IMG/VR virus record: IMGVR_UViG_3300033273_000098 | Span: 1 to 42,590 of that record | DNA from: a virus | Length of the DNA stretch: 42,590 bases | Strand: one strand, 5' to 3' | Shown here: positions 2,017 through 39,235 of the stretch, one piece after another | Numbering within the stretch: position 1 is the stretch's first letter | Layout: each line of letters begins with the position of its first letter | The notes under the pieces: model-generated | The model's input: only the letters and a program-made list of their open reading frames with translations | Databases searched by the model: none | What the model was told of the DNA's origin: nothing | Position numbers and translations under genes: made by a program

Positions 2017-2029
2017 CGGAGTTTATACA

Positions 2030-2404
2030 ATGACAACAATCGCAAACGCATTAAGCGAACTGGGCGTCACAGAGTGGGTACTCCGTGGTGAACCAACGAC
2101 AGAAGCGGAGTTCAACCAGATGTTCCGCAAGATCACTGGCGCGGACGCCAATGGATCAGCAATCGAAACCACAGACCACGATGTCACCTGGGCATCTGTG
2201 TCAGCCAAGAAGGACGAGCTGGTAGCAGCTGAACCCATGCGTCTCCTACGTGAAGAACGTGACCGCCGCTTGGTTGAAACTGACTGGTGGGCCGTGTCTG
2301 ACCGTACGATGACTTCGGATCAGACAGCGTATCGCCAAGCACTTCGAGACATCACAACCACAGCAACGTCCCTGGATGACGTCGTGTGGCCTACGAAACC
2401 TTAA
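2030..2404 (+). CDS. Tail-fibre assembly chaperone-like protein
   Basis: 124 aa with GGAG 9 nt upstream. The C-terminal pattern RLLREERDRRLVETDWWAVSD...AYRQALRDI...VVWPTKP matches the hallmark of phage tail assembly chaperones. It sits among fibre genes. Confidence 0.6.
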   Translation: MTTIANALSELGVTEWVLRGEPTTEAEFNQMFRKITGADANGSAIETTDHDVTWASVSAKKDELVAAEPMRLLREERDRRLVETDWWAVSDRTMTSDQTAYRQALRDITTTATSLDDVVWPTKP

Positions 2405-2417
2405 AGAGGGAAAACCA

Positions 2418-2693
2418 ATGCCAGATATTACAGTCACACTTACAGATACCCAAATGAAGGGCCTCGAGTACGCAGCAGCATCACCCCAGGACTGGGCAGA
2501 GAATGCAATCACAGAACGCGCTCGTATCGCTAATGACGAGATCGTCCAGCTGTATACAAACCGCGCACTCGATGAGGGTGTCCAGATCCCTGCAACACGT
2601 GAGCTTATTGTTGCTGACGCCTTCACACGCGGTTGGGTCAAAACAGCAGCCCAGCGCAACGAAGATGCTGCCGCAGAGATGGCATCTGTATAA
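2418..2693 (+). CDS. Hypothetical protein
   Basis: 91 aa from the ATG preceded by aagaggg. It fills the gap between the chaperone-like gene and the next fibre gene. Confidence 0.5.
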   Translation: MPDITVTLTDTQMKGLEYAAASPQDWAENAITERARIANDEIVQLYTNRALDEGVQIPATRELIVADAFTRGWVKTAAQRNEDAAAEMASV

Positions 2694-2709
2694 ACCTCCC
2701 CCACTACAC

Positions 2710-2727
2710 ACAAAAGTAAGGAACCCA
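2710..2727 (+). promoter_or_regulatory. Conserved 18-nt leader ACAAAAGTAAGGAACCCA, copy 1 (second copy at 20715-20732)
   Basis: The identical 18-mer lies 3-5 nt upstream of the ATGGCC start of two fibre genes. Its core TAAGGAACCC resembles the TAAGGGACCCCC promoter motif. Confidence 0.4.
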
Positions 2728-2729
2728 GG

Positions 2730-3683
2730 ATGGCCTACATTGGTTCAGCCCCTACCTCAGTTGTGTCTCGAGACTCCGCAAAGGTTTACCGATACACGGC
2801 GACAGCAGGTCAAACTGTTTTCTCTGGTGCAGATGCAGACAACCAGATCCTTGATGTCACCCCTAGTGACACCAGGGTGCATATCAATGGTTTGCTACTA
2901 GAGCCATCAGACTACAACTTGACGAACTCGAGTGTCACTTTGACAACCGCAGCGTCAGGTGGTGATGAACTGACTGTCACTGGGTTCCAAACCTTTGAGG
3001 TCGCAGACACATACACCAAGGCGACTTCGGATTCACGCTATGTGAACACCACTGGTGATACGATTAGCGGCACCCTGGTTGTAGACGGAAGTTTCTCTGT
3101 ATCTCGAGGCTCAAGCCATTCTAATACCTACGAAGGTGGTCGTGTGACACTGAAGAATGGCAGCGGCTACACGAAGCAGTATGGCCTTGACACCTATTAT
3201 GAGAACTTCCGCATCTTTAGGGAAAACGCAGATGGTACAGGTGGTGCGGTAAGGTTTGAGATTGACAGCGCAGGGCGTGTGACTATGCCGTATCAACCAT
3301 CGTTTCAAGCATACAGAGCAACGACGGGATACGCCGTCTACAATGCAGGTGATGTAGTCATATGGCCTGATACGAATTACAACGTAGGAAATTGCTACAA
3401 TACGACAACAGGTAGATTTACGGCACCCATAGCGGGCCTCTACATGTTTTATGCTTACATTTACCAAGCATCGAGCAGCTACTCACGGTGGACCTTGCGA
3501 ATTAACGGTGGTCAAGCCTTTGCGGGGCAAGGTGGTATCCATCAGTCAGGCGATCAATGTACTGTGGCGGCTGCGCATAAACTCGCGGCTGGCGATTATG
3601 TTACAATGTCCTCTAGCTATGCAGGGCAGACACTATTTCACGACAGAGATCACTCCGCAATGGGCGGCTACCTAATAGGATAA
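2730..3683 (+). CDS. Tail fibre with shared N-terminal anchor domain and C1q-like C-terminal head
   Basis: 317 aa. The N-terminus MAYIGSAP...FEVADTYTKATSDSRY is paralogous to the 42299 gene. The C-terminus carries QPSFQAY, YNTTTGRFTAPIAGLYMF, AAGDYV and GGYLIG, which match gC1q hallmarks. Confidence 0.75.
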   Translation: MAYIGSAPTSVVSRDSAKVYRYTATAGQTVFSGADADNQILDVTPSDTRVHINGLLLEPSDYNLTNSSVTLTTAASGGDELTVTGFQTFEVADTYTKATSDSRYVNTTGDTISGTLVVDGSFSVSRGSSHSNTYEGGRVTLKNGSGYTKQYGLDTYYENFRIFRENADGTGGAVRFEIDSAGRVTMPYQPSFQAYRATTGYAVYNAGDVVIWPDTNYNVGNCYNTTTGRFTAPIAGLYMFYAYIYQASSSYSRWTLRINGGQAFAGQGGIHQSGDQCTVAAAHKLAAGDYVTMSSSYAGQTLFHDRDHSAMGGYLIG

Positions 3684-3695
3684 GGATACACACAC

Positions 3696-4388
3696 ATGAG
3701 TAACGCACGTAACTTATCCAAAGGTTTGATCGAGGGTCGCTTCGAGGTCAATCATTCAGAGAACTCAGCATCAGCATTCCCAAGTGGTGACTGGGCAGCT
3801 AAAGTTTACAACCAGTTCGACGCACCTAACGAGGGTGGTCTTGTTGTTGCCAATCGTTGGGAGGCAAGTGCATCTAGTGCATTTCTTGTGGGTGGTCTGC
3901 ATGATGGTGGCGATGGTTTTAACGAGTATCTAAAGGTTGACGGCATTGGTCACGTAACGATGCCTAAACAACCAGCGTTTTGGGCATATAATGTAACAGG
4001 ATCAAGTACACAGACTTCGGGTACAATCACATTCCCTCAAACGGATATAAATACTGGTAATCACTACAATACCTCTACAGGTAGATTTACAGCACCTATA
4101 TCTGGCGTTTATGAGTTTAATGTTATGGTTTTGCACAGGATGGTGAATGTCGGCGGTGCCGCTGAAATTACCCTTCTCCTTAACGGAGCAAATGTTAGTA
4201 GTCGTGGTCTAGCTTACTCTGGGGGAAGCTCTGGTCAGGGCGATTTGCATATTCCACAACATATAACGTACCGAAGATCATTGAGTGCAGGTGACTACGT
4301 TCAGCCTTACATACACGCAATGGGAGGTGGTCAGGACTTCTATTTACATAGTCGTCTATCTTACTTCACAGGACGCTTAATCGGATAG
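3696..4388 (+). CDS. C1q-like head-domain fibre protein
   Basis: 230 aa with GHVTMPKQPAFWAY, HYNTSTGRFTAPISGVYEF, SAGDYV and a terminal FTGRLIG. It is paralogous to 2730 and 41657. Confidence 0.7.
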   Translation: MSNARNLSKGLIEGRFEVNHSENSASAFPSGDWAAKVYNQFDAPNEGGLVVANRWEASASSAFLVGGLHDGGDGFNEYLKVDGIGHVTMPKQPAFWAYNVTGSSTQTSGTITFPQTDINTGNHYNTSTGRFTAPISGVYEFNVMVLHRMVNVGGAAEITLLLNGANVSSRGLAYSGGSSGQGDLHIPQHITYRRSLSAGDYVQPYIHAMGGGQDFYLHSRLSYFTGRLIG

Positions 4389-4400
4389 GGATCATAGAAC

Positions 4401-4664
4401 ATGAGTGATGAAACGGGCTGGCACCTGTCTAAATCAGTGCCACTACAGTTAATCTTTGGCTTGTTGATCCAGGCGGGTGCAATAGTCTGGACCGTAAGCA
4501 TGATGATGTCAGACATCGAGCGCAACATGCAAGACATCATGGTACTCGAGATCACCGTCAGTGAGCTAGAGGCTGTCGTGCAGTCTCAACAAGTTTCCCT
4601 GGCACGGATCGATGAGAACATCAAAGCAATACGTGATGCCGTCGAGCGGATGGCCTCCGAGTGA
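4401..4664 (+). CDS. Membrane protein with one N-terminal TMD and a coiled-coil tail (lysis-associated or virion-associated, unknown)
   Basis: 87 aa. The hydrophobic stretch LQLIFGLLIQAGAIVWTVSMMM is followed by heptad-like charged sequence. Confidence 0.5.
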   Translation: MSDETGWHLSKSVPLQLIFGLLIQAGAIVWTVSMMMSDIERNMQDIMVLEITVSELEAVVQSQQVSLARIDENIKAIRDAVERMASE

Positions 4665-4824
4665 TCTGCGTTCTACTTATAGTCGGCTACGGTCATGGGT
4701 TCTACGAAGGTTTTTACAAGAGTTGTAAATATGAATGTCAGGATGGAACCCGAAGATACTATCGCGTTTCACCTGACTACATATGTCCCAAAGCCCTAAG
4801 GGAGAGCAGACCTTAGGAGTACCC

Positions 4825-5259
4825 ATGATAGCTGAGTTGGCTGCATTCAACGCTGCCTATGCAACCGTCAAGGCAACGATTACCGCAGGTAAAGAGCTTT
4901 CGTCCGTCATGGCATCCATAGGGACCATGGTCGACAGTAAAGACAGCCTACAGAAACAAATGCAGGGCAAAGGCCATAGGACCGACCTGGATCAGTTCAT
5001 GGCACTCGAGCGTATCAAAGAGGCCGAGGATGAGCTGAGGCAGCTGATGATTTACGCGGGTCGGCCTGGGCTTTACCAGGACTGGGTCAAGTTCCAGGTG
5101 GACGCTCGAAGGGCACGTAAAGAGGCCGAGAAAGAAGCCGCGCGCAAACGTCAAGAATTCATGGACACAGTCATACCTATCGTTGCCGTGGGTCTGATCC
5201 TTGTGATTGCCCTGGGTGCCTTGGTCGCGCTCATGTGGCACAGAGGAGTATTCGGATGA
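4825..5259 (+). CDS. Tail-anchored membrane protein, unknown function
   Basis: The ATG at 4825 has taggag 7 nt upstream (the ORF track start is 4783). It has a charged helical body and a C-terminal TMD IPIVAVGLILVIALGALVALMW. Confidence 0.5.
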   Translation: MIAELAAFNAAYATVKATITAGKELSSVMASIGTMVDSKDSLQKQMQGKGHRTDLDQFMALERIKEAEDELRQLMIYAGRPGLYQDWVKFQVDARRARKEAEKEAARKRQEFMDTVIPIVAVGLILVIALGALVALMWHRGVFG

Positions 5260-5459
5260 ATGAACTAATACCAGACAAGGTCACCTATCAGACCAACAAA
5301 CGGCGCATGACCTGGGCTGCGCTGGGGATGATGATTGTCGCAACCCTGGCAGTCATCCACGACCCCGCACGTATGAATGAGGCCAGTGCGGTTCTCATGA
5401 TGATGTATGGCTCATTAAGTGCTGTTGTCGCTGCCTACGTCACGGTCAACAGTAAGTGA
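5256..5459 (+). CDS. Putative holin (two TMDs)
   Basis: 67 aa from the ATG with GGAG 6 nt upstream. It has two hydrophobic segments (WAALGMMIVATLAVI and VLMMMYGSLSAVVAAYV). It lies immediately upstream of the spanin-like and endolysin genes. Confidence 0.5.
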   Translation: MNELIPDKVTYQTNKRRMTWAALGMMIVATLAVIHDPARMNEASAVLMMMYGSLSAVVAAYVTVNSK

Positions 5460-5818
5460 TCACCAGGGTCATCCTGGTCGTCATGAGTTTTACACTAGCA
5501 TCCTGTGGTTCGATCCCCTTCCTATTCAGTGGTGGGGGTGGGCCCTCAGTCACAACTGTCGGAACACAGCTGGCTAAGGAAGCGAACCAGCAAGTCGTAA
5601 ACGACCAGTCCAACATCAGGACAGAAGACGGCGACATCGAGGTCACTGAGCTGCAAGACACAGTCACGACCCGAGACGTCGAACGTATCAACATCAAGAA
5701 CACTGACATCCCGCCCTGGATCATCATTGCACTGATCCTCGGGTGGTTGGCTCCCTCACCAGGTGAGATGGGCAGGGGCCTCATGTCAGCTGTCACCAGC
5801 CTTCGAAGGAGAACATAA
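5456..5818 (+). CDS. Lipoprotein with C-terminal TMD; candidate unimolecular spanin
   Basis: A GTG start overlaps the upstream TGA. The signal peptide MITRVILVVMSFTLA|SC carries a LASC lipobox. A C-terminal TMD IPPWIIIALILGWLAP is followed by a basic tail. It sits between the holin-like and amidase genes. Confidence 0.5.
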   Translation: MITRVILVVMSFTLASCGSIPFLFSGGGGPSVTTVGTQLAKEANQQVVNDQSNIRTEDGDIEVTELQDTVTTRDVERINIKNTDIPPWIIIALILGWLAPSPGEMGRGLMSAVTSLRRRT

Positions 5819-6249
5819 TGCGTCATATAGACGAGATCATTCTACACTGCACAGCCACTCGATCTGACTGGGCGGCAGACCAGAGCACAGACTGGAAGGT
5901 CGCACAGGTCCGCAGCTGGCATAAAAATGGAAATGGCTGGCGCGACATCGGCTACCACTACCTAGTGGATATCGACGGAACAGTGGCAGTAGGTCGACCA
6001 GTGACGCAAACTGGCGCACATACTCGAGGCCACAACAAGGGCACCATCGGTATTGCACTGTTTGGTGGTCATGGATCCACAGCTGACGATGCGTTCTCAG
6101 ACAACTTCACAGATGCACAGTTCAAGGCCGTCGAACAACTGATCGAGGATCTGAAGGCAGACTACCCGATCACTCGTGTCTCAGGACACAACGAATATGC
6201 AAACAAAGCATGTCCTGGATTCAACGTCCCGATTTACTTTCACGACTAA
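5818..6249 (+). CDS. N-acetylmuramoyl-L-alanine amidase (T7 gp3.5 lysozyme-like endolysin)
   Basis: 143 aa. ILHCTAT, WRDIGYHYLVDIDGTVAVGR, GAHTRGHNKGTIGIAL and HNEYANKACPGF align with the conserved blocks of T7 lysozyme. Confidence 0.9.
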   Translation: MRHIDEIILHCTATRSDWAADQSTDWKVAQVRSWHKNGNGWRDIGYHYLVDIDGTVAVGRPVTQTGAHTRGHNKGTIGIALFGGHGSTADDAFSDNFTDAQFKAVEQLIEDLKADYPITRVSGHNEYANKACPGFNVPIYFHD

Positions 6250-6278
6250 TTCCCCTCAGCAGAAAGGAAGGTGATCCT

Positions 6279-6365
6279 ATGTCTATCGTGGCTGGATTTC
6301 CTGTGTCGATCCCCGAATTGATCACAATAGGAATGCTGGCTGTCGTCATCTATAAACTTAGGTAA
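6279..6365 (+). CDS. Possible 28-aa membrane peptide
   Basis: ATG preceded by aggaaggtga. The product is MSIVAGFPVSIPELITIGMLAVVIYKLR. It is very short and has no other support. Confidence 0.25.
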   Translation: MSIVAGFPVSIPELITIGMLAVVIYKLR

Positions 6366-6385
6366 TCAACAGCCAACTTTGACAA

Positions 6386-6442
6386 CATCGGTCTACATCA
6401 GCATGGCAATCAGCCAGCATCAGAAGTAGATCGGTGTTTTTT
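6386..6442 (+). terminator. Hairpin plus T6 at the end of the late/lysis operon
   Basis: catcggtctac (6386-6396) pairs with gtagatcggtg (6426-6436), giving 11 bp including 2 G-U in RNA. It is followed by tttttt. Confidence 0.5.
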
Positions 6443-6450
6443 GCTCACAC

Positions 6451-6463
6451 TAAGGGTCCCCCT
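6451..6463 (+). promoter_or_regulatory. Candidate phage-RNAP promoter, variant copy (TAAGGGTCCCCCT)
   Basis: It has one mismatch to the motif repeated at 8179, 10683 and 19781. It is intergenic, on the + strand, and directly after the terminator. Confidence 0.5.
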
Positions 6464-6475
6464 TATACAAAAGTG

Positions 6476-6505
6476 TTGACAAGGATGTATCCGTTGACTC
6501 ATAAG
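6476..6505 (+). promoter_or_regulatory. Possible host sigma70-type early promoter
   Basis: TTGACA, an 18-nt spacer, then CATAAG. It lies upstream of the early genes. The -10 element is weak. Confidence 0.25.
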
Positions 6506-6532
6506 GGGGTACGGACGATGCGTCCAGATATC

Positions 6533-6595
6533 GGTGGTTAGAGCAGCGGAATCATAATCCGCGTGTCGGGGGTTCAAGTCCCTCCTCCGCTACCA
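6533..6595 (+). other. tRNA-Met/Ile2(CAT)-like 3' fragment (D-loop GG to CCA); candidate attP core
   Basis: GGTGGTTAGAGC, then anticodon arm gcgga/atCATaa/tccgc, variable loop gtgtc, T arm ggggg/ttcaagt/ccctc, then ctccgct-A-CCA. There is no matching 5' acceptor strand or D-stem upstream. int lies 0.7 kb downstream. Confidence 0.65.
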
Positions 6596-6649
6596 ACCAA
6601 AGATATCATCGGAACAGCATCAGTCCTTAACCATAAGGAGACTGATACG

Positions 6650-6847
6650 ATGACATATATTCACGACGATTACTGGTCCAGACAGTGGCAGCTAGAGGCT
6701 GAGTCAGAAGCCCACTTTATTGAAAAACAGCGTCTTGAGCTACAGAACGCAGCTGGCGTCGATATGCCTAGACTAGACTGCTATTGTTATTATTCCGATT
6801 TCGCTGATTGCATCACGAAAGCACCTGAAACAGAGGTGCCGTTCTAA
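6650..6847 (+). CDS. Early hypothetical protein, acidic
   Basis: 65 aa from the ATG with AAGGAG upstream. The ORF-track start at 6563 would lie inside the tRNA-like segment. Confidence 0.55.
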   Translation: MTYIHDDYWSRQWQLEAESEAHFIEKQRLELQNAAGVDMPRLDCYCYYSDFADCITKAPETEVPF

Positions 6848-7301: not shown

Positions 7302-8129
7302 ATGAACTTCATCGACTTTGTAAACACCGAGGGTCCTAACATCTGGCGCGACAAGCACCTAGCAGAGAGCCGCACTAAGATGCACCGCTTTGGCGAGTTT
7401 GGCGGCGTAGGTTTCAAAGAGATCTCAGAGATCACAGCCCGTGACATCCACGCATTCAGCCTACACCTTTTGGACCAGGGCCTAACCGTAAATACTGTCA
7501 ATCACTACAAGGCTGCTATCAGTGCAATCCTGAAGCATGCGCTGGATCTCGATGAGATCGAAAAGCTACCCAAAATTAAGTTTGCGAAAGTGCGGACTAA
7601 CCGTGTACGCTACATGTCTCACGACGAGATCGAGAAGCTAGACACATTCCTACGTGACTACAAAGGTGGCAGCTACTGGTGGATGCGCCACATGTGCACC
7701 ATTGCTTTGAACACAGGCATGCGTCATGGCGAGATCCTATCGATCACACCAGACATGGTGACCATCGAAGGTGACATGTGCACAGTGCACTTGACCAACA
7801 CCAAGAACGGCGATGACCGCGACGTAGTATGCGCTGGGAAGACCTTTGCAGCCATCATGGCCCTAGAGTTCGAACCAGGTAAATACTACAGCCACCGCAA
7901 GTTCTATAACACCTGGGATGAGGCACGTTATCGTATTGCCAAGGGTGACAAAGAGTTTGTCTTCCACATCCTACGTCACACAGCAGCCACCAAGATGGCT
8001 AACGAGCTAAAGCTACCTACGGTTACCGTAGCCCAGCAATTGGGCCATCGTAGCCTTCAGACGACTGCTAAGTACGTGCATCAGACACCTGAAACACGTG
8101 CAGAGATTGCCAAGCTAATGGGGTCCTAA
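7302..8129 (+). CDS. int: Tyrosine recombinase / phage integrase
   Basis: 275 aa. It has ALNTGMRHGEIL (Arg I), HILRHTAAT (H-x-x-R) and LGHRSLQTTAKYVH (His/Tyr nucleophile region). Confidence 0.9.
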   Translation: MNFIDFVNTEGPNIWRDKHLAESRTKMHRFGEFGGVGFKEISEITARDIHAFSLHLLDQGLTVNTVNHYKAAISAILKHALDLDEIEKLPKIKFAKVRTNRVRYMSHDEIEKLDTFLRDYKGGSYWWMRHMCTIALNTGMRHGEILSITPDMVTIEGDMCTVHLTNTKNGDDRDVVCAGKTFAAIMALEFEPGKYYSHRKFYNTWDEARYRIAKGDKEFVFHILRHTAATKMANELKLPTVTVAQQLGHRSLQTTAKYVHQTPETRAEIAKLMGS

Positions 8130-8216: not shown

Positions 8217-10679
8217 ATGACTATAGGGGTACTTCAGACACAGTCTGATCTCGAGCAGCAAATGATCCAAAGAGGTCAAGAGAGATACAAAAAGAGACAA
8301 GAGAAACTAGCACCGAGCCAACGTGAGATCCCGCACCAGGTGCTAACCGATGCCCTACCCAAGGTGTCTAAAGCTATCAAAGAGGCACTTGAAGAGGACG
8401 CGAAACGCTTCCACTCTGGCCTTGGCAAAAAGAGCCTGTGGTACGAGGAGCTAATTGATCAAGACACAGACACCCTAGCCTACTTAGGTCTGAACTCTTG
8501 CTACGAAAGCGTGATGATGCAGGGTACTCTAGCTGGCTGTCTGATCACTATAGGATCTAGGGTCGAACTAGAGTGCTGGGCTGAAGATCTACGTGCGTAT
8601 GATGACACACTGTTCAAACGCCTGGTCAAACAGGTGACCCGAGATCACTCCAGTGAACGCTATCGGCTCAAGGCCGCACGTATCATAGCCACCAAAGCTG
8701 GCTTCAAGTTTGATAAGTGGTCAAGGTCGATGAAGGTGAATATCGCTAGTCCGATCCTGAATGCTGTCTTGGAACACTCAGAGATATTCGATGTCGCCAC
8801 AGTAGAAGAGAACCTGAAGACACATCGGACCTTATGTCTGACTGATGCAGCTGAAGGTCTCATCCGTCAGCGCATGTTTGACGCAAGCTGGGCCGAGCCA
8901 GCCTTTGGTCCACTTATAGTTCCACCAAAGCCCTGGACTGCCTTCGACAGCGGTGTCTATGAAAACGAGATGTTGTCGACCCTGGTACCTATGATCCGTA
9001 GGACCACCACAGAGCAGCGGAGAGCCATCGAGAGAGACTTTGAGAGAGAACCTGAGCCTCTATATGTCAAAGCTATAAACGCGCTCCAGGACACCCCTCT
9101 GCGGATCAACAAGCGCGTCTTGGATGTCTTGGATTGGTGCGTCAGTGAAAAGCTCAGGTTCGGTAAGTTTCCAGAGCTGGAACCACCGATCTTTCCTAAG
9201 CTACCTGAAGACTTCGAGGATCTACCTGAGAAGCAGCAACGGCAGCTGAAGAAGGACCAAAAGGATTGGCACGTGAAGAGACGTGAGTCAGTTGCCAACC
9301 TGGTTGTCATGGATGATGACCTGAAGTCGGCTTTTAAGATGGCTGAGTATGATCGCTTCTGGATTGGCTGGAGCTTTGACTTCAGAGGGCGCATGTACCC
9401 TGTCAGCCATTTCAACTACCACCGTGATGACCACATCAAGGCACTCTTTGAGTTTGCTAGAGGTCGACCAGTGGCTGAAGAGGACAGAGGTTGGCTTGCG
9501 ATCCACCTGGCTAACGTCGGTGACTTCAAGAAGATCTCCAAGGCATCTCTGGATGATCGGATCCAGTGGGTCATGGACAATGAGGAGTGGTTGCGTCAGG
9601 TCAATGACGACCCCAAGTCCACCTTCGATCTGTGGACCCAAGCTGACAAACCGTTCCAGTTCCTGGCGGCTGTCTTTGCCTACTTTAGCGACGACCCTGT
9701 GTGTCACCTTCCAGTTTCCCTGGATGGAACTAACAGTGGCGTCCAGCACTATGCCCTGGCACTTCGGTCATCTGAGGACGGTCACATGGTTAACCTGGTG
9801 CCAGACGATAAGTGCCAGGACGTCTACCAGACCGTGGCTAACCAGGTGATCCAGGATCTGACTGAGGATGGATCTGAGGAAGCAGTCAAATGGCTCGACT
9901 ACGGCATCACTAGATCCACGGTCAAACGTAATGTCATGACCTATGGGTACAGCAGCGTCGAGCGTGGGTTTGGCGATCAGATCATCGAAGATCTCATGCA
10001 GCCGCTACAAAAGGACGTCAACTATGGGACGATCCCCGAGCACCCGTTCGGTGACGTCAGAGACCAGGAGAAGTACGCCAGGTTTCTAGCCAAGTTCAAC
10101 TACCAGGCAGTGCAGAAGGTCATCTCTAGTGTGGCCCAGGGCATGGACTTCTTACAGTCATATGCTGACGCCCTGGCTCGTGAAGGTAAGTCAGTTCGGT
10201 GGACAACACCCAGTGGTTTCCCAGCGGTCCAAAGGTACACCAAACCTGACGTCAAACGAGTGAAGATCTTCCTATATGACCGAGAGGCCAAGCTACGGAA
10301 ACAGACCAGGGTCACGCTACACAGTGACGGACCCACGTACGACACCAGGAAGGCAAGAGCTGGCATAGCCCCCAACTTCGTGCATTCCCTGGACTCAGCT
10401 CACATGCAGTTGGCTATCGTGCACGGTCTCGAGCAGGGCATCGAGGACTTCTTTATGATCCACGATAGTTTTGGTACGGCTGCTGGTCAGACCTGGTCAT
10501 TCTACCACTGCATCCGTCACGCGATTGTCGACATGTACGAGGACAACTGTGTTCTGGGCAACTTCGAGATCGAGTGTCGTAACCGTCTGGCTAACCCAGA
10601 CATGGACCTAGCACAGGTCCCACAGAAGGGCACATTAGATGTCCGAGCAGTCCTGGACAGCGAATATTGCTTTAGCTGA
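8217..10679 (+). CDS. T7-like single-subunit DNA-dependent RNA polymerase
   Basis: 820 aa. DGTNSGVQHYA, IAPNFVHSLDSAHM, MIHDSFGT and the C-terminal ...SEYCFS correspond to T7 gp1 DGSCSGIQH, APNFVHSQD, IHDSFGT and the ...FAFA foot. Confidence 0.95.
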   Translation: MTIGVLQTQSDLEQQMIQRGQERYKKRQEKLAPSQREIPHQVLTDALPKVSKAIKEALEEDAKRFHSGLGKKSLWYEELIDQDTDTLAYLGLNSCYESVMMQGTLAGCLITIGSRVELECWAEDLRAYDDTLFKRLVKQVTRDHSSERYRLKAARIIATKAGFKFDKWSRSMKVNIASPILNAVLEHSEIFDVATVEENLKTHRTLCLTDAAEGLIRQRMFDASWAEPAFGPLIVPPKPWTAFDSGVYENEMLSTLVPMIRRTTTEQRRAIERDFEREPEPLYVKAINALQDTPLRINKRVLDVLDWCVSEKLRFGKFPELEPPIFPKLPEDFEDLPEKQQRQLKKDQKDWHVKRRESVANLVVMDDDLKSAFKMAEYDRFWIGWSFDFRGRMYPVSHFNYHRDDHIKALFEFARGRPVAEEDRGWLAIHLANVGDFKKISKASLDDRIQWVMDNEEWLRQVNDDPKSTFDLWTQADKPFQFLAAVFAYFSDDPVCHLPVSLDGTNSGVQHYALALRSSEDGHMVNLVPDDKCQDVYQTVANQVIQDLTEDGSEEAVKWLDYGITRSTVKRNVMTYGYSSVERGFGDQIIEDLMQPLQKDVNYGTIPEHPFGDVRDQEKYARFLAKFNYQAVQKVISSVAQGMDFLQSYADALAREGKSVRWTTPSGFPAVQRYTKPDVKRVKIFLYDREAKLRKQTRVTLHSDGPTYDTRKARAGIAPNFVHSLDSAHMQLAIVHGLEQGIEDFFMIHDSFGTAAGQTWSFYHCIRHAIVDMYEDNCVLGNFEIECRNRLANPDMDLAQVPQKGTLDVRAVLDSEYCFS

Positions 10680-10682
10680 ACC

Positions 10683-10694
10683 AAGGGACCCCCT
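10683..10694 (+). promoter_or_regulatory. Candidate phage-RNAP promoter (AAGGGACCCCCT)
   Basis: Intergenic between the RNAP and SSB genes, in the same orientation as the other copies. Confidence 0.55.
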
Positions 10695-10742
10695 CAGAAC
10701 CAGTAGAAAAGGTTCACGTTGGAAACACTACAGGAGACTCAT

Positions 10743-11285
10743 ATGAGCAAAACTAAATTCGTATCCCCAGCTGGCATTGCACAATACCCGTGGCTTCAGC
10801 CTGGGCGACCAGACACAGCCTTCGATCCTGAAGGTAAGTACAAGGTCGAATTACGATTGGCACCAAAAGATGCAAAACACATGACTAACCTGATTGAACA
10901 GGTGACGTCAGAAAACTTCGGTGCCAAGGACAAAGTCCACAAGCCCTTCAAGATCGATGACGAGACTGGAGAGTACTCTTTTAAGATCCAATCAAAGTAC
11001 CAACCAAAGTACTATGACGCATCAGGCAACCCAATTCCCTTGGAGTCAGTGCCATCGATGTTCTCAGGATCTGAGCTGCGTGTCTCTGGTCAGGTCGATG
11101 CCTACACTAATGGTGCCAAGAAAGGCATCAGCCTACGCCTGGCAAACGTCCAGGTGATCAACCCAGTATCTGGTGGGTCTGGTGATGGTGCAGGTGACTT
11201 CGATGCTGTCGATGGGTTCACAGTCACGTCAGGTGGTTCGAGCGAGTTTGCTGACGACCTGAATGATGAACTTGAGGACTTCTAA
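10743..11285 (+). CDS. Single-stranded DNA-binding protein (T7 gp2.5-like)
   Basis: 180 aa from the ATG with AGGAG 6 nt upstream. The acidic C-terminal tail ends ...DDLNDELEDF, with a terminal Phe as in gp2.5. It lies between RNAP and endonuclease I. Confidence 0.75.
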   Translation: MSKTKFVSPAGIAQYPWLQPGRPDTAFDPEGKYKVELRLAPKDAKHMTNLIEQVTSENFGAKDKVHKPFKIDDETGEYSFKIQSKYQPKYYDASGNPIPLESVPSMFSGSELRVSGQVDAYTNGAKKGISLRLANVQVINPVSGGSGDGAGDFDAVDGFTVTSGGSSEFADDLNDELEDF

Positions 11286-11700
11286 AGCTGCCTATCGGCT
11301 GGGCTTTAGATCAGGACTGGAAAAGAAGGTCAGCGAACAGATACTCGAGGCAGGGATCAAGCTCCTCTACGAGACGGACAAGATCCAATTTACCATTCCA
11401 GCACGACAGGCAAAGTATACGCCTGACTTTAAGCTCCCAAAACCTGGGGGCTTTTTCTTTGTCGAAACGAAAGGGATCTGGGCAGTTCAAGATAGGCAAA
11501 AGCATATCCTGATCGCGCAACAGATGCCTGAGTTAGACATCCGCTTCGTCTTCTCCAATCAGAACGCACGTTTGTACAAGGGTTCCCCGACCACGTACGC
11601 GATGTACTGCGAGAAGCACGGGTTCAGGTATGCGAACAAGGTCATACCTGATGAATGGCTTGAAGAAGCCAAACAAGGAGAGAGCGAGGGGGCGGCTTAG
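11263..11700 (+). CDS. Endonuclease I (T7 gp3-like Holliday-junction resolvase)
   Basis: FRSGLEKKVSEQ, YTPDF, FVETKG, ELDIRFVFSN, LYKGSPTTY and CEKHGF match T7 gp3 block for block. Confidence 0.9.
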   Translation: MMNLRTSKAAYRLGFRSGLEKKVSEQILEAGIKLLYETDKIQFTIPARQAKYTPDFKLPKPGGFFFVETKGIWAVQDRQKHILIAQQMPELDIRFVFSNQNARLYKGSPTTYAMYCEKHGFRYANKVIPDEWLEEAKQGESEGAA

Positions 11701-11719
11701 GTCGCCCCTTTTTATTTTA
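11689..11719 (+). terminator. Intrinsic-type terminator after the endonuclease gene
   Basis: ggggcg (11689-94) pairs with cgcccc (11703-08) around an 8-nt loop that contains the stop codon. It is followed by tttttatttt. Confidence 0.6.
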
Positions 11720-11734
11720 CTGGGAGTTAACGCG

Positions 11735-11935
11735 ATGAAGATAAAACGCATAGATCCGTTCACAGGTAAGACCAATGAAATGGACCTACCCATAACCACT
11801 GAGCAGTATGATCGCTGGCAGTCTGGTGTCTTAATTCAATATGCATTTCCAGATCTGACGCCCACGCAACGTGAGTTTATCAAGACTGGTATTATGGATT
11901 GGCCTTGGCCTAACGACGGTGATTTCAATGAGTAA
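11735..11935 (+). CDS. Hypothetical protein
   Basis: 66 aa (MKIKRIDPFTGKTNEMDL...) with GGGAG upstream. It ends 8 nt inside the primase gene. Confidence 0.55.
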   Translation: MKIKRIDPFTGKTNEMDLPITTEQYDRWQSGVLIQYAFPDLTPTQREFIKTGIMDWPWPNDGDFNE

Positions 11936-13547
11936 TGTTGAGACAACCGAAAGCGAATTCGTACGTCACGTCCCATGTGACGAGTGTGGATCCCGCGACA
12001 ACGGCGCAATGTACAGCGACGGGCATGTCTATTGCTTTGGCTGCGGTGCCTGGGTCGCTGGTGACGGTGAGACGCCCACCTGGACGCCAGAACGCAAACC
12101 AGCCGTTCCCCTGGTCAGTGGCGAGTATAAAGCTCTTCGATCACGCAAGATCACCGAAGAGACCTGCCGCAAGTTTGGCTACATGGTCGGACGCATGGGT
12201 GGCGAAACAGTGCAGCTGGCGACATACAAGGACAGCAAGGGCCGTCCAGTCGCGCAGAAGGTCCGCACCAAAGATAAGAAGTTCTCAATCGTTGGTGAGA
12301 GCAAGAAGATGACCCTGTTTGGATCGCACCTGTGGTCCAACGGCAAGATCCTCACTATCTGTGAAGGCGAGATTGATGCCATGTCGGTCAGTCAGATGCA
12401 GAACCACAAGTGGGCAACCGTCAGTCTACCTAACGGTGCTCACTCAGCTAAACGAGCGATCCTAGAGAATTACGATTATGTGACTGGGTTTGAGTCCGTC
12501 GTGCTTATGTTCGACAATGACGAACCTGGTCGCGAAGCTGCCATCGAGTGTGCAGAAGCATTGCCAATTGGGTTAGCCAAGATCGCTAACCTGGGCGAAC
12601 ACAAGGATGCCAATGAGGCACTTGTGAAAGGAGATGCAAAGACAGTCATACAGGCGATACACCAGGCTCGTGACTACCGTCCTGATGGTATCGTGGCAGC
12701 TGCCGACCTCAGAGAGGTTATAGGTGTGGGGGATGCTGTCTCTCCCATTAGTTACCCTTACAGCAAGCTCAACGATATCACGAAGGGCTTACGGCTGGGG
12801 TCACTGGTCACCATTGCCGCTGGCTCTGGGGTCGGCAAATCTACGTTCGTACGTGAGCTGATGTATCACGTGCAGCAGTCAGGTTTCCCTATCGGTATGA
12901 TGATGCTCGAAGAGAGTACCAAGCGTACCGCCCAGGGCCTGGTTGGCTTACACATGAACAAGAACATCACAGTGTGTGTCGAGGACACGTCTGAGGATGA
13001 AATCGTCAGTGCGTTTGATGACATGCTCAAGGCTGGTGAATTCTACTTGTTCGATCACTTCGGATCCACGGATCTGGACGTCATCATCAGTCGCATACGC
13101 TACATGAACAAGGCCCTGGGATGCCAGGTCATCTGTTTAGATCACGTATCGATCCTGGTCAGTGGTTTAACTTCAGGTGTGTCAGATGAACGACGTCTGG
13201 TAGATGACATAATGACCAGGCTACGTGTCGAGGTCCAAGCCCTGGGCATCTGCCTTATCCTGGTGTCCCACCTACGTCGCCCACAAGGGGACAAGGGACA
13301 CGAAGGGGGAGCACAAGTGTCTTTGAGCCAGCTCAGGGGGTCACATGCTATTGCGCAGTTGGCAGACACCTGCATCGGCATCAACGTGGACGCTGACGAT
13401 CCGACATCTGGAAAGCGAAACCTGGTCGTCCTGAAGAACAGGCACACGGGTGAGGTAGGCGCAGCTGGTGTTCTCAAGTACGACCTGGACACAGGGCGTC
13501 TGAGCGAGACCAATGACTTCAATGAATTCGAAGACGTGCCGTTCTGA
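11928..13547 (+). CDS. Bifunctional DNA primase-helicase (T7 gp4-like)
   Basis: It has the zinc finger CDECGSRDNGAMYSDGHVYCFGCG, TOPRIM-like ICEGEIDAMS...MFDNDEPG and the Walker A AAGSGVGKST. The start was chosen at the ATG giving MSNVETTESEFVRHVPC. Confidence 0.9.
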   Translation: MSNVETTESEFVRHVPCDECGSRDNGAMYSDGHVYCFGCGAWVAGDGETPTWTPERKPAVPLVSGEYKALRSRKITEETCRKFGYMVGRMGGETVQLATYKDSKGRPVAQKVRTKDKKFSIVGESKKMTLFGSHLWSNGKILTICEGEIDAMSVSQMQNHKWATVSLPNGAHSAKRAILENYDYVTGFESVVLMFDNDEPGREAAIECAEALPIGLAKIANLGEHKDANEALVKGDAKTVIQAIHQARDYRPDGIVAAADLREVIGVGDAVSPISYPYSKLNDITKGLRLGSLVTIAAGSGVGKSTFVRELMYHVQQSGFPIGMMMLEESTKRTAQGLVGLHMNKNITVCVEDTSEDEIVSAFDDMLKAGEFYLFDHFGSTDLDVIISRIRYMNKALGCQVICLDHVSILVSGLTSGVSDERRLVDDIMTRLRVEVQALGICLILVSHLRRPQGDKGHEGGAQVSLSQLRGSHAIAQLADTCIGINVDADDPTSGKRNLVVLKNRHTGEVGAAGVLKYDLDTGRLSETNDFNEFEDVPF

Positions 13548-13771
13548 TGCAGTGGTTCACAGTCTTATTCATTGAGTACACCAGTGCTCAGTATGGCTAC
13601 CTGTGGGCACAGGTACTCTTCCCCACGTACGAGCAATGTGAACAGGCTATGGAGATCCATGAGCCTCTTTACGAAACCTATCGAGACGCGGCGGTCTACT
13701 GCCAGCGCATCAAACTTAGCAAATCAATCAGACCGAAACTAAGACCAGAGGAGAGCACCCATGGTTTCTGA
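13547..13771 (+). CDS. Hypothetical protein
   Basis: 74 aa. Its start overlaps the helicase stop (TGATG). Confidence 0.45.
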   Translation: MQWFTVLFIEYTSAQYGYLWAQVLFPTYEQCEQAMEIHEPLYETYRDAAVYCQRIKLSKSIRPKLRPEESTHGF

Positions 13772-14126
13772 GAAGTTTATCTACCCGCTAACAATGAACG
13801 ACTACCAGGCAGACACAGCACAGTTTGCCATCTACAGGCACAAGGTGGTCTACCCTGCGCTGGGCCTCGCAAACGAAGCTGGTGAAGTGCTGGGCAAGAT
13901 CAAGAAGCTCATGCGCGATCATGAGTTGAGCTTTGGCCCTGAGCAGAAGGTGTCAGACAAGGATCGAGCAGAGATAGCTGACGAGCTTGGTGACGTGCTC
14001 TGGTACATTGCCGCCCTGGCACGTGACCTGGGCATCAGTATGAATGAGCTTGCACACATTAATGTGGAGAAGCTGACGTCACGTCAGAAGCGCGGCGTGA
14101 TTAAAGGATCGGGAGACAACAGATGA
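13761..14126 (+). CDS. mazG: MazG-like nucleoside triphosphate pyrophosphohydrolase
   Basis: It has GLANEAGEVLGKIKK and ELGDVLWYIAALA (the EXXE/D metal-binding helices), plus a C-terminal ...RQKRGVIKGSGDNR. Confidence 0.8.
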   Translation: MVSEKFIYPLTMNDYQADTAQFAIYRHKVVYPALGLANEAGEVLGKIKKLMRDHELSFGPEQKVSDKDRAEIADELGDVLWYIAALARDLGISMNELAHINVEKLTSRQKRGVIKGSGDNR

Positions 14127-14299
14127 GTGACTACACGGTTCACATAAATAAGATCACAGAGCACAAGGACGGCTCTGCTACACTTGACGTAGAAGTCCCT
14201 GACGAAACCTACAAGTTAATATTCGAGTACGGCTTACAGATGCTATTCTTGAAGGCCGCAGAGAATGCTAAAAGTACTCTGACTGAGGGACCGAAGTGA
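14123..14299 (+). CDS. Hypothetical protein (58 aa)
   Basis: ATGA overlap with the mazG stop. It fills the 170-nt gap before the polymerase gene and ends 4 nt inside that gene. Confidence 0.4.
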   Translation: MSDYTVHINKITEHKDGSATLDVEVPDETYKLIFEYGLQMLFLKAAENAKSTLTEGPK

Positions 14300-16065
14300 C
14301 CCGCTGGGTCTGGGATCTGGAGAGCGACGGACTATTAGACAAGATCACTAAGATCCACTGCATTGTGTTGAGACACGTTGAGACCGACGAGGTGCAAACC
14401 TACGGCCCCGACGAGATCAAGGCAGCACTGTTCACGCTGATGAATGCTGAGGAAGTCATTGGTCACAACATCATCGACTACGACATCCCCGCACTCCAGA
14501 AGGTGTACCCTGGCTTTGAGATACTAGGCAAAGTCACGGACACACTCATACTGTCTCGCTTGTGTGAAGCAAACCTGGCAGAGAAAGACGTTATTCGTCA
14601 CACAAAGGATCCCGAGAAGTTCCCAAAGAAACTGACAGGATCCCACAGCCTAAAGGCCTGGGGCTTACGCCTGGGCGATTACAAGGATGACTACGATGGC
14701 GGTTGGGAAAACTATAGCCAAGAGATGCTGGACTACTGCGTCCAGGACACTCAGGTCACCCGCGTTTTATACGATCATCTTATGGATCGCGGTTTTTCTA
14801 CTCAGTCGATAGACCTGTCGATGTCTATGGCACAGATATGTCATAACATTGGTAACAATGGGTGGACGTTTGATGAGCCTAAGGCAATCGAGCTGTATTC
14901 CGTACTTGCGCAGAAACGTAACGAGTTAGAGCAAGGCCTGGACGAGCTGTTCCCGCCCTGGGAAGTCACTGAAGAGTTTGTACCCAAGGTCAACAACTCG
15001 AAGCTGGGCTACGTGAAAGGCGAGACGTTTATCAAGCGCAAGCAGGTAGCGTTCAACCCAAGCTCACGTCGTCACATAGAGTTCTGTCTACGTGAGAAGT
15101 ATGCCTGGAAACCTAAGAAGTTTACAGAGAAGGGTCACGCCCAGATCGATGAGAATGTATTGGGTCAGCTACCATATCCTGAGGCCAAGAAACTGGCAGA
15201 ATACTTCCTGGTGCAGAAACGCCTGGGACAGCTGGCAGAAGGTCCCCAGGCATGGCTACGCAAGAAGGATGATGACGGTAAGATCAGACACAAGATCCAG
15301 GTCAACAAAACGATCTCGGGCCGCTGTGCGCATTCGTCACCAAACCTGGCCCAGGTGCCTAAAACCACCCTGCCGTATGGTCGTGAGTGTCGTGAGCTAT
15401 TCACGGTCCCTGACGGCTGGTTCCTGACTGGTAGCGACCTTAGTGGCCTTGAGCTGCGGTGCCTTGCCCACTACCTGAATGATGGCGGTGAGTATGCCAA
15501 GCAGATCCTCGAGGGTGACATCCATACCCACAATCAAAAGGCTGCTGGCCTGGCTACTAGAGACCAGGCGAAGACCTTTATTTACGCCACGATGTACGGC
15601 GGGGGTGATGCCCTGATTGGCAAGATAGCTGGCAAAGGTGCAAAGCACGGCAAGCAGCTAAAGGAGAACTTCAACAAGAACATCCCAGCGTTTGGAACAC
15701 TGCTCCAAAGACTCAAAGCAGCACATGACAAAAGAGGTCACTTGATTGGCCTCGATGGCAGGAAACTGTTCATCAGGTCAGAGCACAAGTTGCTATCACA
15801 ACTCCTGCAATCATGCGGTGCAATCATATGCACTAAGTGGGTGCAGCTGGCCTACAACGAAATCAACAGGCAGCACGAAGGCGATGCATACATCGTTGGC
15901 TGGATTCATGACGAGATCCAGGTTGCCTGTCGTACACAGGAGATCGCTGAGAATGTCGGTGATATCGCTCGACGAATGGCGCAAGAAACAGGCCGCCATT
16001 TCAAAACTAAAATCCCCATTACCGCAGAATATTCCGTGGGCCGAACTTGGGCTGACACACACTGA
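14296..16065 (+). CDS. Family A DNA polymerase (T7 gp5-like, without the thioredoxin-binding insert)
   Basis: The exonuclease N-terminus is WDLESDGLLDKITKIHC. Motif A is DLSGLELR, motif B KTFIYATMYGGG and motif C WIHDEIQV. GTG start. Confidence 0.92.
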   Translation: MTRWVWDLESDGLLDKITKIHCIVLRHVETDEVQTYGPDEIKAALFTLMNAEEVIGHNIIDYDIPALQKVYPGFEILGKVTDTLILSRLCEANLAEKDVIRHTKDPEKFPKKLTGSHSLKAWGLRLGDYKDDYDGGWENYSQEMLDYCVQDTQVTRVLYDHLMDRGFSTQSIDLSMSMAQICHNIGNNGWTFDEPKAIELYSVLAQKRNELEQGLDELFPPWEVTEEFVPKVNNSKLGYVKGETFIKRKQVAFNPSSRRHIEFCLREKYAWKPKKFTEKGHAQIDENVLGQLPYPEAKKLAEYFLVQKRLGQLAEGPQAWLRKKDDDGKIRHKIQVNKTISGRCAHSSPNLAQVPKTTLPYGRECRELFTVPDGWFLTGSDLSGLELRCLAHYLNDGGEYAKQILEGDIHTHNQKAAGLATRDQAKTFIYATMYGGGDALIGKIAGKGAKHGKQLKENFNKNIPAFGTLLQRLKAAHDKRGHLIGLDGRKLFIRSEHKLLSQLLQSCGAIICTKWVQLAYNEINRQHEGDAYIVGWIHDEIQVACRTQEIAENVGDIARRMAQETGRHFKTKIPITAEYSVGRTWADTH

Positions 16066-16090
16066 GGTAGGGGCAGAACTAGAAGCTCTA

Positions 16091-16342
16091 GTGGCAGTCT
16101 ATATCGTCCTCGACAGGGCGTGGAGACGCCCCTTCACAGTATCCAGTCAGTTCGCACGTCAAGGTGCCTTCTACGTCGCTCTAGCGGCCTCTGAGGGCTT
16201 TATTACGACGAACTGTGGTGAGGATACTTGGGGCAACCGTTGGCTGATCACGGAGCATGGCATGGAAGCAAAGGCAGAGCTAGATGAACTACTTCAAAAC
16301 GTACTTGCAGCAGCCCGAGGAGAACACAGTCCTACTCATTGA
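16091..16342 (+). CDS. Possible small protein between the polymerase and exonuclease genes
   Basis: This is the only open frame across the 218-nt gap. It has a GTG start and no convincing RBS, and it overlaps the exonuclease start by 59 nt. Confidence 0.25.
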   Translation: MAVYIVLDRAWRRPFTVSSQFARQGAFYVALAASEGFITTNCGEDTWGNRWLITEHGMEAKAELDELLQNVLAAARGEHSPTH

Positions 16343-17051
16343 TGGTGACTTGTACGCCTATCGAGCATGTGCCGCTGCTGAAGAGGAGATCGACTGGGGT
16401 GACGACATATGGTCCCTGGCGTCAGATCTGAAGCAAGCGAAAAGCATATTTAAGGAAACAATCGACAACGTATGCGAGACCCTGGAGACGGGGTCTTTTG
16501 TTGTCTGCCTGTCCGACAAGGACAACTTCAGGAAGTCCCTGGATCCTGAGTACAAAGGTGGACGCAAGAAGACCAGGAAACCCGTAGGCTACTCGGCATT
16601 CATTAAGTGGATCCAGGAGACCTACCGCTGGTATCGTGAGCCTCTACTCGAGGCAGATGACGTCATGGGGATCCTAGGGTCCGCACCAGGTCATAACACC
16701 ATCATGGTGAGTGATGACAAGGACATGAAGTCGATTCCAGGGAAACTGTACCGCCCGATGTCGGGTGAGTTCATGACCATCAGTAAACAGGATGCGGACC
16801 TATGGTTCTACACCCAGACACTGACTGGTGACGTGACGGATGGATATTCAGGTTGTCCGTCAGTCGGTGCCAAGACTGCCGAAAAGCTACTGGCCCGAGC
16901 GTGTACCTGGGACACAGTTGTCCAGGCCTACGCAAAGCAAAAGCTGAATTACCAATACGCACTAACACAAGCGCGTCTCGCTCGGATCCTGAGGTTCGAA
17001 GACTGGGACGTTGAGAAGGGTGCGATAAAACTATGGGAGCCAAAAAGATGA
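16284..17051 (+). CDS. 5'-3' exonuclease (T7 gp6-like, FEN/PIN fold)
   Basis: LLIDGDLYAYRA, KPVGYSAF, LEADDVMG, SDDKDMKSIPG, GDVTDGYSG and ARILRFEDW...LWEP parallel T7 gp6. Confidence 0.9.
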   Translation: MNYFKTYLQQPEENTVLLIDGDLYAYRACAAAEEEIDWGDDIWSLASDLKQAKSIFKETIDNVCETLETGSFVVCLSDKDNFRKSLDPEYKGGRKKTRKPVGYSAFIKWIQETYRWYREPLLEADDVMGILGSAPGHNTIMVSDDKDMKSIPGKLYRPMSGEFMTISKQDADLWFYTQTLTGDVTDGYSGCPSVGAKTAEKLLARACTWDTVVQAYAKQKLNYQYALTQARLARILRFEDWDVEKGAIKLWEPKR

Positions 17052-36543: not shown

Positions 36544-36582
36544 ACCTACGGGTCTCCCAGCCCCCAACCCCAATGAGAGCAG

Positions 36583-37876: not shown

Positions 37877-37907
37877 TTCACAACACTCAAATAGAAGGTA
37901 ACCAATC

Positions 37908-38789: not shown

Positions 38790-38796
38790 GACATAG

Positions 38797-38816
38797 CTCA
38801 GGCCTTCGGGCCTGGG
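38797..38816 (+). terminator. Hairpin 1 after the capsid gene
   Basis: ctcaggcc-ttcg-ggcctggg forms an 8-bp stem (one G-U) with a TTCG tetraloop. Confidence 0.55.
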
Positions 38817-38838
38817 TCATCTGATGAGGGTCATCCTC

Positions 38839-38900: not shown

Positions 38901-38914
38901 CCAAGGAGATAGCA

Positions 38915-39232: not shown

Positions 39233-39235
39233 CCC

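Follow-up and report, generated by a model that had tools for sequence, protein, structure and literature searches.

Putative receptor-binding proteins with a C1q domain were described beside the tail fibres in the "metaviromic islands" of marine phages by Mizuno, Ghai & Rodriguez-Valera (2014), in whose recruitment plots the N-terminus of the protein recruits well and the C1q part poorly (PMC3909814). Bellas et al. (2020) reported proteins of this class from cryoconite phages, where as many as three variants occur together in a single metagenome (PMC7468147). The locus treated here is in IMG/VR virus record IMGVR_UViG_3300033273_000098, a stretch of 42,590 nucleotides (positions 1 to 42,590 of the record) that is referred to in its entirety as the window. 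Three of its genes, called P1, P2 and P3, are likely to encode short tail-fibre (receptor-binding) proteins of an exchangeable two-module build, each with a globular C1q (gC1q) head. Their tail-fibre role and the exchangeability of the distal head are well supported, both by gene context and by comparison with related phages. The genes are as follows.

2730-3683, + strand: P1, 317 amino acids (aa), PHROG 15750 ("unknown function")
3696-4388, + strand: P2, 230 aa
41657-42292, + strand: P3, 211 aa

Bases 1-141 of the window are identical to bases 42450-42590 (141 nt); a whole phage genome is thus represented, in circular or terminally redundant form, with a unit length of ~42,449 bp. On the circle the distance from P3 to P1, downstream of it, is only ~2.9 kb, and both belong to one uninterrupted tail-gene block.

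The C1q fold of the C-terminal heads

Four conserved blocks had been proposed, in an earlier note on this DNA, to be common to the C-termini of P1, P2 and P3, and all four are present when the three proteins are aligned. The first block reads GRVTMPYQPSFQA in P1, GHVTMPKQPAFWA in P2 and GRVTMPDQP-WA in P3, where it is one residue short, so that the pattern originally given is only a rough fit to P3. The second is CYNTTTGRFTAPIAGLY in P1, HYNTSTGRFTAPISGVY in P2 and HYNTSTHRFVCPVDGVY in P3, and the third is AGDYV in both P1 and P2 and ANDYL in P3. The fourth forms the C-terminus itself (YLIG in P1, RLIG in P2 and RLLG in P3), the chain of each protein stopping right at the last strand (LIG-stop). 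Pairwise BLASTP comparisons among the three give E-values of 3e-16, 6e-12 and 2e-8, and a hidden Markov model of the head region, run over the open reading frames (ORFs) of the window, finds exactly P1, P2 and P3 and no fourth member.

The heads match the Pfam C1q family (PF00386, gathering threshold 23.7 bits) with scores of 42.4 bits for P1 (E 9.7e-11, residues 198-316), 42.1 bits for P2 (E 1.2e-10) and 33.6 bits for P3 (E 5.2e-8), all above the threshold. The match of P1 spans positions 7-127 of the 127 in the profile; those of P2 (1-54) and P3 (16-82) each span about half. Single-sequence phmmer searches of the PDB retrieve cerebellin-1, C1QL2/3, adiponectin, single-chain C1q and caprin-2, with E-values down to 9e-10. 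The signature F-x(5)-[ND]-x(4)-[FYWL]-x(6)-F-x(5)-G-x-Y-x-F-x(4)-[FYWL], which we take to be PROSITE PS01113, is found in full in P2 when searched as a regular expression; P1 departs from it at the first position (W for F), and P3 has two mismatches, S in place of N/D and I in place of F.

Structure prediction gives the same picture. An AlphaFold2 monomer model of P2, built from 76 homologues, has block means of the predicted local distance difference test (pLDDT) of 85-98 over residues 91-230, but 65 at residues 171-180, and contains ten strands between residues 94 and 228. In Foldseek the model superimposes on mouse C1QL1 (4d7y) with an E-value of 6.4e-11, a target-normalised template modelling (TM) score of 0.86 and a root-mean-square deviation of 2.2 Å over 142 columns. 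The top 50 PDB matches are all members of the C1q family, human C1q chain C (1pk6_C) having a TM score of 0.86; the best matches are C1QL1, C1QL3, Cbln1 and C1q, and phage entries named "C1q domain containing protein" are found as well. The P1 model has the same head and strand pattern, with top BFVD matches annotated as C1q, and from residue ~180 onwards its pLDDT is mostly >90, three 10-residue blocks being at 73-86.

The BclA_C family (PF18573) is also detected, at 23.1 bits (E 7e-5) in P3 and 12.5 bits in P2, both under its threshold of 38; the signal in P3 reflects a related fold and not membership. The sequences of P1, P2 and P3 contain no collagen-like Gly-X-Y run. Cerebellins and caprin-2 are likewise without a collagen stalk, which is not required for the C1q family. 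A chance resemblance to C1q was considered and is excluded by the Pfam, phmmer and Foldseek results. It is essentially certain that the C-termini of P1, P2 and P3 have the C1q fold, and the original suggestion of C1q/TNF-like jelly-roll heads is borne out by the Pfam and phmmer matches and by the predicted fold of P2.

Modular architecture and replacement of the heads

Each protein consists of an N-terminal module, a joint and the head, and the heads of P1 and P2 can be delimited on the DNA as cassettes.

P1 parts: anchor module, residues ~1-95; short helix, 97-104; linker and small sheet, 105-178; joint IDSAGRVTMPYQPSF, 178-192; C1q head, ~186-317
P2 parts: N-terminal module MSNARNLSK..., residues 1-84; joint VDGIGHVTMPKQPAF; C1q head, residues 85-230
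P3 parts: N-terminal module MGKSHDLATF..., residues 1-78; joint IDTAGRVTMPDQP; C1q head, residues 79-211
3273-3680, + strand: P1 head cassette, from GRVTMP to the C-terminal LIG
3948-4385, + strand: P2 head cassette

In the P1 model the N-terminal part is a confident beta-sandwich (residues ~12-88, with pLDDT >90 over residues 20-80), and the linker that follows the helix is poorly modelled. Some 60 metagenomic proteins, 270-320 aa long, have this same combination of a P1-type anchor with a C1q head. The opening of P2, MSNARNLSK, recurs in the metagenomic proteins P0003, P0005 and P0018, that of P3 is echoed in P0004 (MGKSKELAT...), and in the related locus L085 an opening similar to that of P2, MSNARQL..., is found on the gene that comes after the head gene. 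A segment of P2 covering residues ~25-80 (window 3770-3940; SAFPSGDWAAKVYNQ...GGLVVANRW...FLVGGLHDGGDGF) is 63-67% identical to sequence inside P0022 and P0023, which are longer metagenomic fibres ending in the intramolecular-chaperone domain Peptidase_S74; its occurrence there marks the segment as an independent fibre module. A search of PHROGs with the N-terminal parts (P1 residues 1-115, P2 1-85 and P3 1-81) matched no family. The best match of a P1-type anchor profile among solved structures was a non-significant one to the tailspike 7rfo (E 0.9), so that no docking partner can be named for the anchor.

A close relative is L081, a 6.2-kb metagenomic contig with the same gene order as the window. 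Its DNA is 90% identical over 2028-3315, 84% over 3664-3964 and 87% over 4361-6654, with zero detectable similarity over 3315-3664 (the P1 head) and 3964-4361 (the P2 head, with flanks at 83-87% identity). Both gaps open at the GRVTMP motif and close 20-27 nt short of the stop codon. The sequences that take the place of the heads encode C1q heads too, 37-38% identical in amino acids to those of the window; in the P1 slot, 38% identity of the head stands against 92% identity of the N-terminal part. Whole heads have thus been replaced between two phages that are otherwise close relatives, with breakpoints that can be located on the DNA.

Two further relatives extend the observation. In L085 (P0002), the P2 head is found at 96% nucleotide identity (93% aa) on a P1-type anchor that is ~77% identical, and the switch from P1-like to P2-like sequence falls inside the codons for GRVTMPYQP. 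L086, a syntenic genome of 41,974 bp from a sediment metagenome, carries in its P3 slot a C1q gene that is only 31% identical to P3 between flanking genes that are 75% and 73% identical in amino acids. L086 is without P2, and its P1-like gene is followed by an 18-codon stub, MSNARQLAANLPREADPV-stop (L086 10835-10902). The stub is a remnant of a second-fibre gene that in L085 is full length and not obviously C1q, and genes are gained and lost in the slot after P1.

When eight genes are compared, the N-terminal modules cluster by slot, with identities between phages of 55-92% in the P1 slot and 77% in the P2 slot; the heads are 28-47% identical whatever the slot and do not cluster by it. A conserved N-terminus and a variable C-terminus are thus found in the identity matrices, in the DNA breakpoints, and in the anchor that P1 has in common with the gene at 42299. 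By these comparisons the heads act as exchangeable cassettes, housed in a number of slots, two or three, that differs between genomes. The nucleotide core of the 5' joint, CGTGTGACTATGCC, is common to P1, P3, L081a and L085, and the 3' joint can be written as (C/T)TAAT(A/C)GGATA(A/G).

The variation seen among the heads is whole-cassette replacement and not adenine-targeted mutation. No reverse transcriptase was found among the ten large ORFs scanned, and no search aimed at diversity-generating retroelements was made. Column entropy in the P2 head (strands 2.63, loops 2.01) says little about strand and loop variability, since most of the conserved signature falls in turns.

Gene junctions and the origin of the three copies

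The earlier note had read the sequence between genes as evidence of cassette duplication, in which a single cassette would have been copied within this genome, joint (stop, spacer and ATG) included, to give the three genes. The junctions concerned are these.

3678-3698, + strand: P1-P2 junction, GGATAAGGATACACACACATG; GGA TAA (Gly-stop), GGAT, ACACAC, ATG; identical in L081
42287-42301, + strand: junction of P3 with the following gene, of 162 aa, GGATAAACACACATG; GGATAAAAACACATG at this place in L086
P2-holin junction: GGATAGGGATCATAGAACATG, conserved in L081 and L086

Both junction strings that had been reported for P1 and P3 are present in the window, although the second had been placed one base too early, at 42286 rather than 42287. 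That the three heads are homologous, and that GGATAA...ACACACATG stands at two downstream junctions, would agree with duplication. The 9-mer ACACACATG has two occurrences in the window, at the P1-P2 and P3 junctions only, and 1.2 are expected by chance; as for the hexamer at -6 to -1, the other gene starts (47 in the window) form 1081 pairs, and no pair shares one. Taken together, the match between the P1 and P3 junctions is mildly more than chance.

Functional constraint offers another explanation of the same bases. GGATAA is the conserved Gly codon and the stop, and with a preceding A or the following GGAT it creates AGGA or AAGGA, which resembles a Shine-Dalgarno sequence and has the next ATG 8-9 nt further on, so that the end of one gene doubles as the ribosome-binding site of the next. 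The spacers themselves vary: at the P3 junction L086 has AAACAC, and in the P1 slot L085 and L086 have the GGAG-containing spacers CAGGAGATTAACAC and CAAGGAGATAAGCAC. After one junction comes a gene starting MSNAR..., after the other an unrelated gene starting MAYIG.... Within the genome the heads are 28-40% identical, a divergence at which synonymous and non-coding sites should be saturated and which is too great for a neutral spacer to have been kept by descent. The conservation of the joint, if real, is more plausibly functional, by way of translational coupling, as a recombination arm, or both.

The matrix of head identities likewise points away from a grouping of the heads within this genome. 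The P2 head that is held in common with the P1 slot of L085, at 96% of nucleotides, speaks for import and exchange between genomes rather than for duplication in one, and import with exchange accounts better for the three copies. Duplication of a cassette together with its intergenic joint is therefore unlikely, and the earlier proposal is not upheld.

The surrounding tail-gene block

The three genes adjoin fibre genes and a fibre-assembly chaperone, within the block listed below.

39496-40101, + strand: SU10-type adaptor; PHROG virion structural matches, L086 orthologue 54% identical, PF24175
40114-41310, + strand: 398-aa Ala-rich repeat fibre; many tail-fibre PHROGs matched
41325-41657, + strand: 110-aa protein, whose stop overlaps the P3 start by one base (TAATG), an arrangement also found in L086
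42299-42590 continuing at 142-338, + strand: 162-aa gene that wraps the circular join, as seen from the terminal overlap and the wrapped translation
339-884, 881-1441 and 1438-2016: three small genes of 181, 186 and 192 aa, linked by ATGA start/stop overlaps
2030-2404, + strand: tail-fibre assembly chaperone, two genes upstream of P1; Pfam Phage_tail_APC, E 3e-14, and PHROG tail fibre assembly families
between the chaperone and P1: 105-aa gene
4401-4664, + strand: holin-like gene at the downstream edge of the fibre block; PHROG holin, E 4e-4
5818-6249: amidase

The genes follow one another in the order listed, P3 standing between the 110-aa and 162-aa genes, and P1 and P2 between the 105-aa gene and the holin-like gene; L081 and L086 keep the gene order. 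In phage SU10 the genes that come after the adaptor encode the proximal and distal proteins of the long fibre, and short fibres dock on the nozzle (PMC9509320). By this positional analogy the tip of a distal fibre could be what P3 encodes, with P1 and P2 possibly encoding proteins of the short-fibre type.

The 162-aa gene opens with the MAYIG... anchor module that is also found in P1 and has a short, non-C1q C-terminus; it matches the N-terminus of P1 with a BLASTP E-value of 1e-12 at 39% identity, and is 73% identical in amino acids to the L086 gene at 7326-7820. Lists of ORFs that end at the window edges miss this gene. The 398-aa fibre is made almost entirely of Ala/Thr/Ser/Glu/Asn repeats of the ETNAATSA type, and the repetitive DNA of 40114-41310 also reads as long spurious ORFs in alternative frames and on the complementary strand.

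Similarity of the DNA of the small genes at 339-2016 to L081 occurs in short patches only, and L086 has four unrelated small genes in their place; the region is a second hypervariable slot. One of the three matches the C-terminus of a tail-fibre PHROG. Two of the three end in LEIAQ or MEIAQ, and the GGAGAT codons in these endings form the ribosome-binding site of the next gene. The small genes (339-884, 881-1441, 1438-2016 and 41325-41657) were considered as possible paralogues of each other, a relationship that is unsupported by local alignment (z-scores <=2.8).

Proposed function of P1, P2 and P3

In the mechanism that we propose, each fibre ends in a ten-strand jelly-roll head of the gC1q type, which would form a trimer, as every solved gC1q domain does. 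Folding of the fibre would start at this C-terminal trimer, whose loops would be displayed for binding to a host surface molecule. A slot-specific N-terminal module, namely the anchor of P1 (used also by the 42299 gene) or the ~80-residue segment of P2 and P3, is combined with an exchangeable head. Heads pass from slot to slot and from phage to phage, through what would be recombination at a pair of short conserved joints: a 5' joint encoding (I/V)DxxGRVTMPxQP, with the core CGTGTGACTATGCC, and a 3' joint formed by L(I/L)G-stop together with the ribosome-binding site. The earlier suggestion that the heads are alternative receptor-binding tips thus finds indirect support, as a putative function, in the tail-module position of the genes and in the cassette-wise replacement of heads beside conserved N-termini and flanks.

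In C1q, as in collagens VIII and X, it is from the gC1q domain that assembly of the trimer starts. The heads of P1, P2 and P3 might accordingly be regarded as nuclei of trimerisation and folding in the main, or as general tail adhesins, with specificity residing elsewhere, for example in the small genes at 339-2016. Agreeing with this are the trimer structures 1o91 and 1gr3 among the Foldseek matches of the P2 model, the replacement of the small genes, too, between relatives, and the tail-fibre match of one of them. A pure nucleus, however, needs no cassette replacement between phages that are 87-90% identical elsewhere. Moreover, the core signature is the most conserved part of the head and the rest is highly variable, and it is the C1q part that under-recruits and varies in the marine phages (PMC3909814). 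A mainly structural role is for these reasons quite unlikely, and the heads are better viewed as exchangeable, putatively receptor-binding tips.

Several points weigh against the receptor-binding, exchangeable-head interpretation and should be set beside it. Neither conserved joint is long (~14-17 nt at the 5' edge), and recombination at them is deduced from the breakpoints. P2 and P3 have N-terminal modules of low model confidence (pLDDT about 50-58) that match no known docking domain. Trimerisation, presence in the virion, binding of a receptor and the docking partners of the N-terminal modules are elements that we infer, the first three from the C1q family and from the published interpretation. 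A check for positive selection, which the earlier note had suggested, gave no signal: the P2 and L085 heads differ at 17 positions, too few changes, with a ratio of non-synonymous to synonymous polymorphism (pN/pS) of 0.43, and the diversity of the heads comes by replacement and not by point mutation.

A bolder version of the proposal can be offered tentatively and with some doubt. Beyond being conserved structure, the joints could serve as homology arms for an exchange of cassettes that operates across the three slots and among co-infecting phages. P2 and P3, which have no anchor module, could piggy-back on other fibre proteins to give a branched, multi-headed apparatus for adsorption on an SU10-like tail. 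If this were true, one virion would present three different C1q specificities at once.

The phage and its probable host

The portal protein matches Pfam SU10_portal with an E-value of 2.5e-184, and the L086 orthologues of the capsid and adaptor proteins carry SU10_MCP and SU10_adaptor (PF24175). The replication set is T7-like, with a single-subunit RNA polymerase, a primase-helicase and a family-A DNA polymerase; a ribonucleotide reductase is also among the window genes. The gene content is therefore a hybrid, in which T7-like replication genes (8217-19497) stand side by side with an SU10-type portal, capsid and adaptor (34513-40101), plus an integrase.

7302-8129: tyrosine integrase, an ORF call whose L086 orthologue carries Pfam Phage_integrase

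The phage is a temperate podovirus with SU10-like structural genes. Comparison with 50,697 phage records revealed no close cultured relative by DNA, giving only short matches of 66-72% (to HMO-2011, CRP roseophages and others), and the capsid protein is <=37% identical to any of these records. An ORF of 1958 aa at 26367-32243, upstream of the terminase and portal region, could encode a large protein of the virion interior or one that is ejected.

Upstream of the integrase gene, at window 6534-6597, is a partial tRNA with the anticodon CAU that comprises the 3' two-thirds plus CCA. It scores 21.5 bits against the Rfam tRNA model (cut-off 29), and ARAGORN reports no tRNA gene. A 46-nt stretch of it occurs exactly in at least 120 genomes, nearly all of Alphaproteobacteria or unclassified Pseudomonadota, including Rhodobacterales, Sphingomonadales and SAR116/Puniceispirillales. 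The partial tRNA is likely to be the attP core, and the 46-nt matches point to tRNA-Met as the integration site and to an alphaproteobacterium as the probable host.

Comparison with known systems

Relatives of the three proteins are encoded by at least 465 IMG/VR viral contigs, as found by a pattern and tblastn scan. Among 81 sequences (80 related loci and the window), 29 hold 2-5 C1q-head ORFs within ~6 kb, and the head is always C-terminal. BFVD contains dozens of phage entries named "C1q domain containing protein", and one from Pf-WMP3 is named "putative variable tail fiber protein". Cultured homologues amount to three of the 50,697 phage records, from Limnohabitans phage DC33 and Synechococcus phage ACG-2014j, all annotated "hypothetical protein".

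As in the marine and cryoconite phages (PMC3909814, PMC7468147), the C1q domain here is at the C-terminus of a small protein encoded beside tail-fibre genes, a setting that has been read as that of a receptor-binding protein. The conserved N-terminal part and hypervariable C1q part of the marine phages have their counterpart in the loss of DNA similarity exactly over the heads. Unlike the published HTVC010P-like pelagiphages and Mu-like phage, the window phage combines SU10-like and T7-like genes with an integrase and has a probable alphaproteobacterial host. It also differs from the published cases in having three slots in one genome, in breakpoints resolved to the GRVTMPxQP and LIG-stop joints, and in the occurrence of one head on two N-terminal modules. 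C1q-domain putative receptor-binding proteins have been known in phages since 2014, and what is new is the resolution of the cassette boundaries and the finding of a head on two N-terminal modules; no new fold, mechanism or class of system is revealed. To the published view that C1q heads are hypervariable modules for receptor binding in aquatic phages, the locus adds an example with resolved breakpoints. It pinpoints likely host-range genes of an uncultured temperate podovirus and the limits of their exchangeable parts, which may be of use in predicting host range and in designing head-swap chimeras.

With the metazoan gC1q proteins (C1q A/B/C, C1QL1-4, the cerebellins, adiponectin, caprin-2 and the NC1 domains of collagens VIII and X) the heads share the Pfam family and the ten-strand jelly-roll, at target-normalised TM scores of 0.75-0.87 and 19-25% identity, and the core F-x5-N-x4-Y-x6-F-x5-G-x-Y-x-F is intact in P2. 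They differ in that P1, P2 and P3 have neither a Gly-X-Y stalk nor a signal peptide, and the head is carried on phage fibre modules. Distal C-terminal heads of the C1q/TNF-like kind are also found in the BclA C-terminal domain, in tectivirus Toil gp30 and PRD1 P5, and in the fibres of extracellular contractile injection systems (eCIS); C1q heads on eCIS tail fibres have been catalogued (PMC12923769), and a C1q/TNF-like head has been described on a tectivirus spike (PMC5773508). The heads of BclA, Toil gp30, PRD1 P5 and eCIS are known or presumed to be trimeric and have been proposed to bind targets, but their carriers are different, being an exosporium filament, the spike of a membrane-containing phage and a contractile injection system. 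Mosaic fibres such as T-even gp37/gp38, those of the P2/Mu type and lactococcal receptor-binding protein heads retain a conserved N-terminal attachment part and have the distal tip swapped by recombination at short conserved linkers. In P1, P2 and P3, unlike these T-even, P2, Mu and lactococcal tips, the tip has the gC1q fold, and the GRVTMPxQP motif is in the place of the linker.

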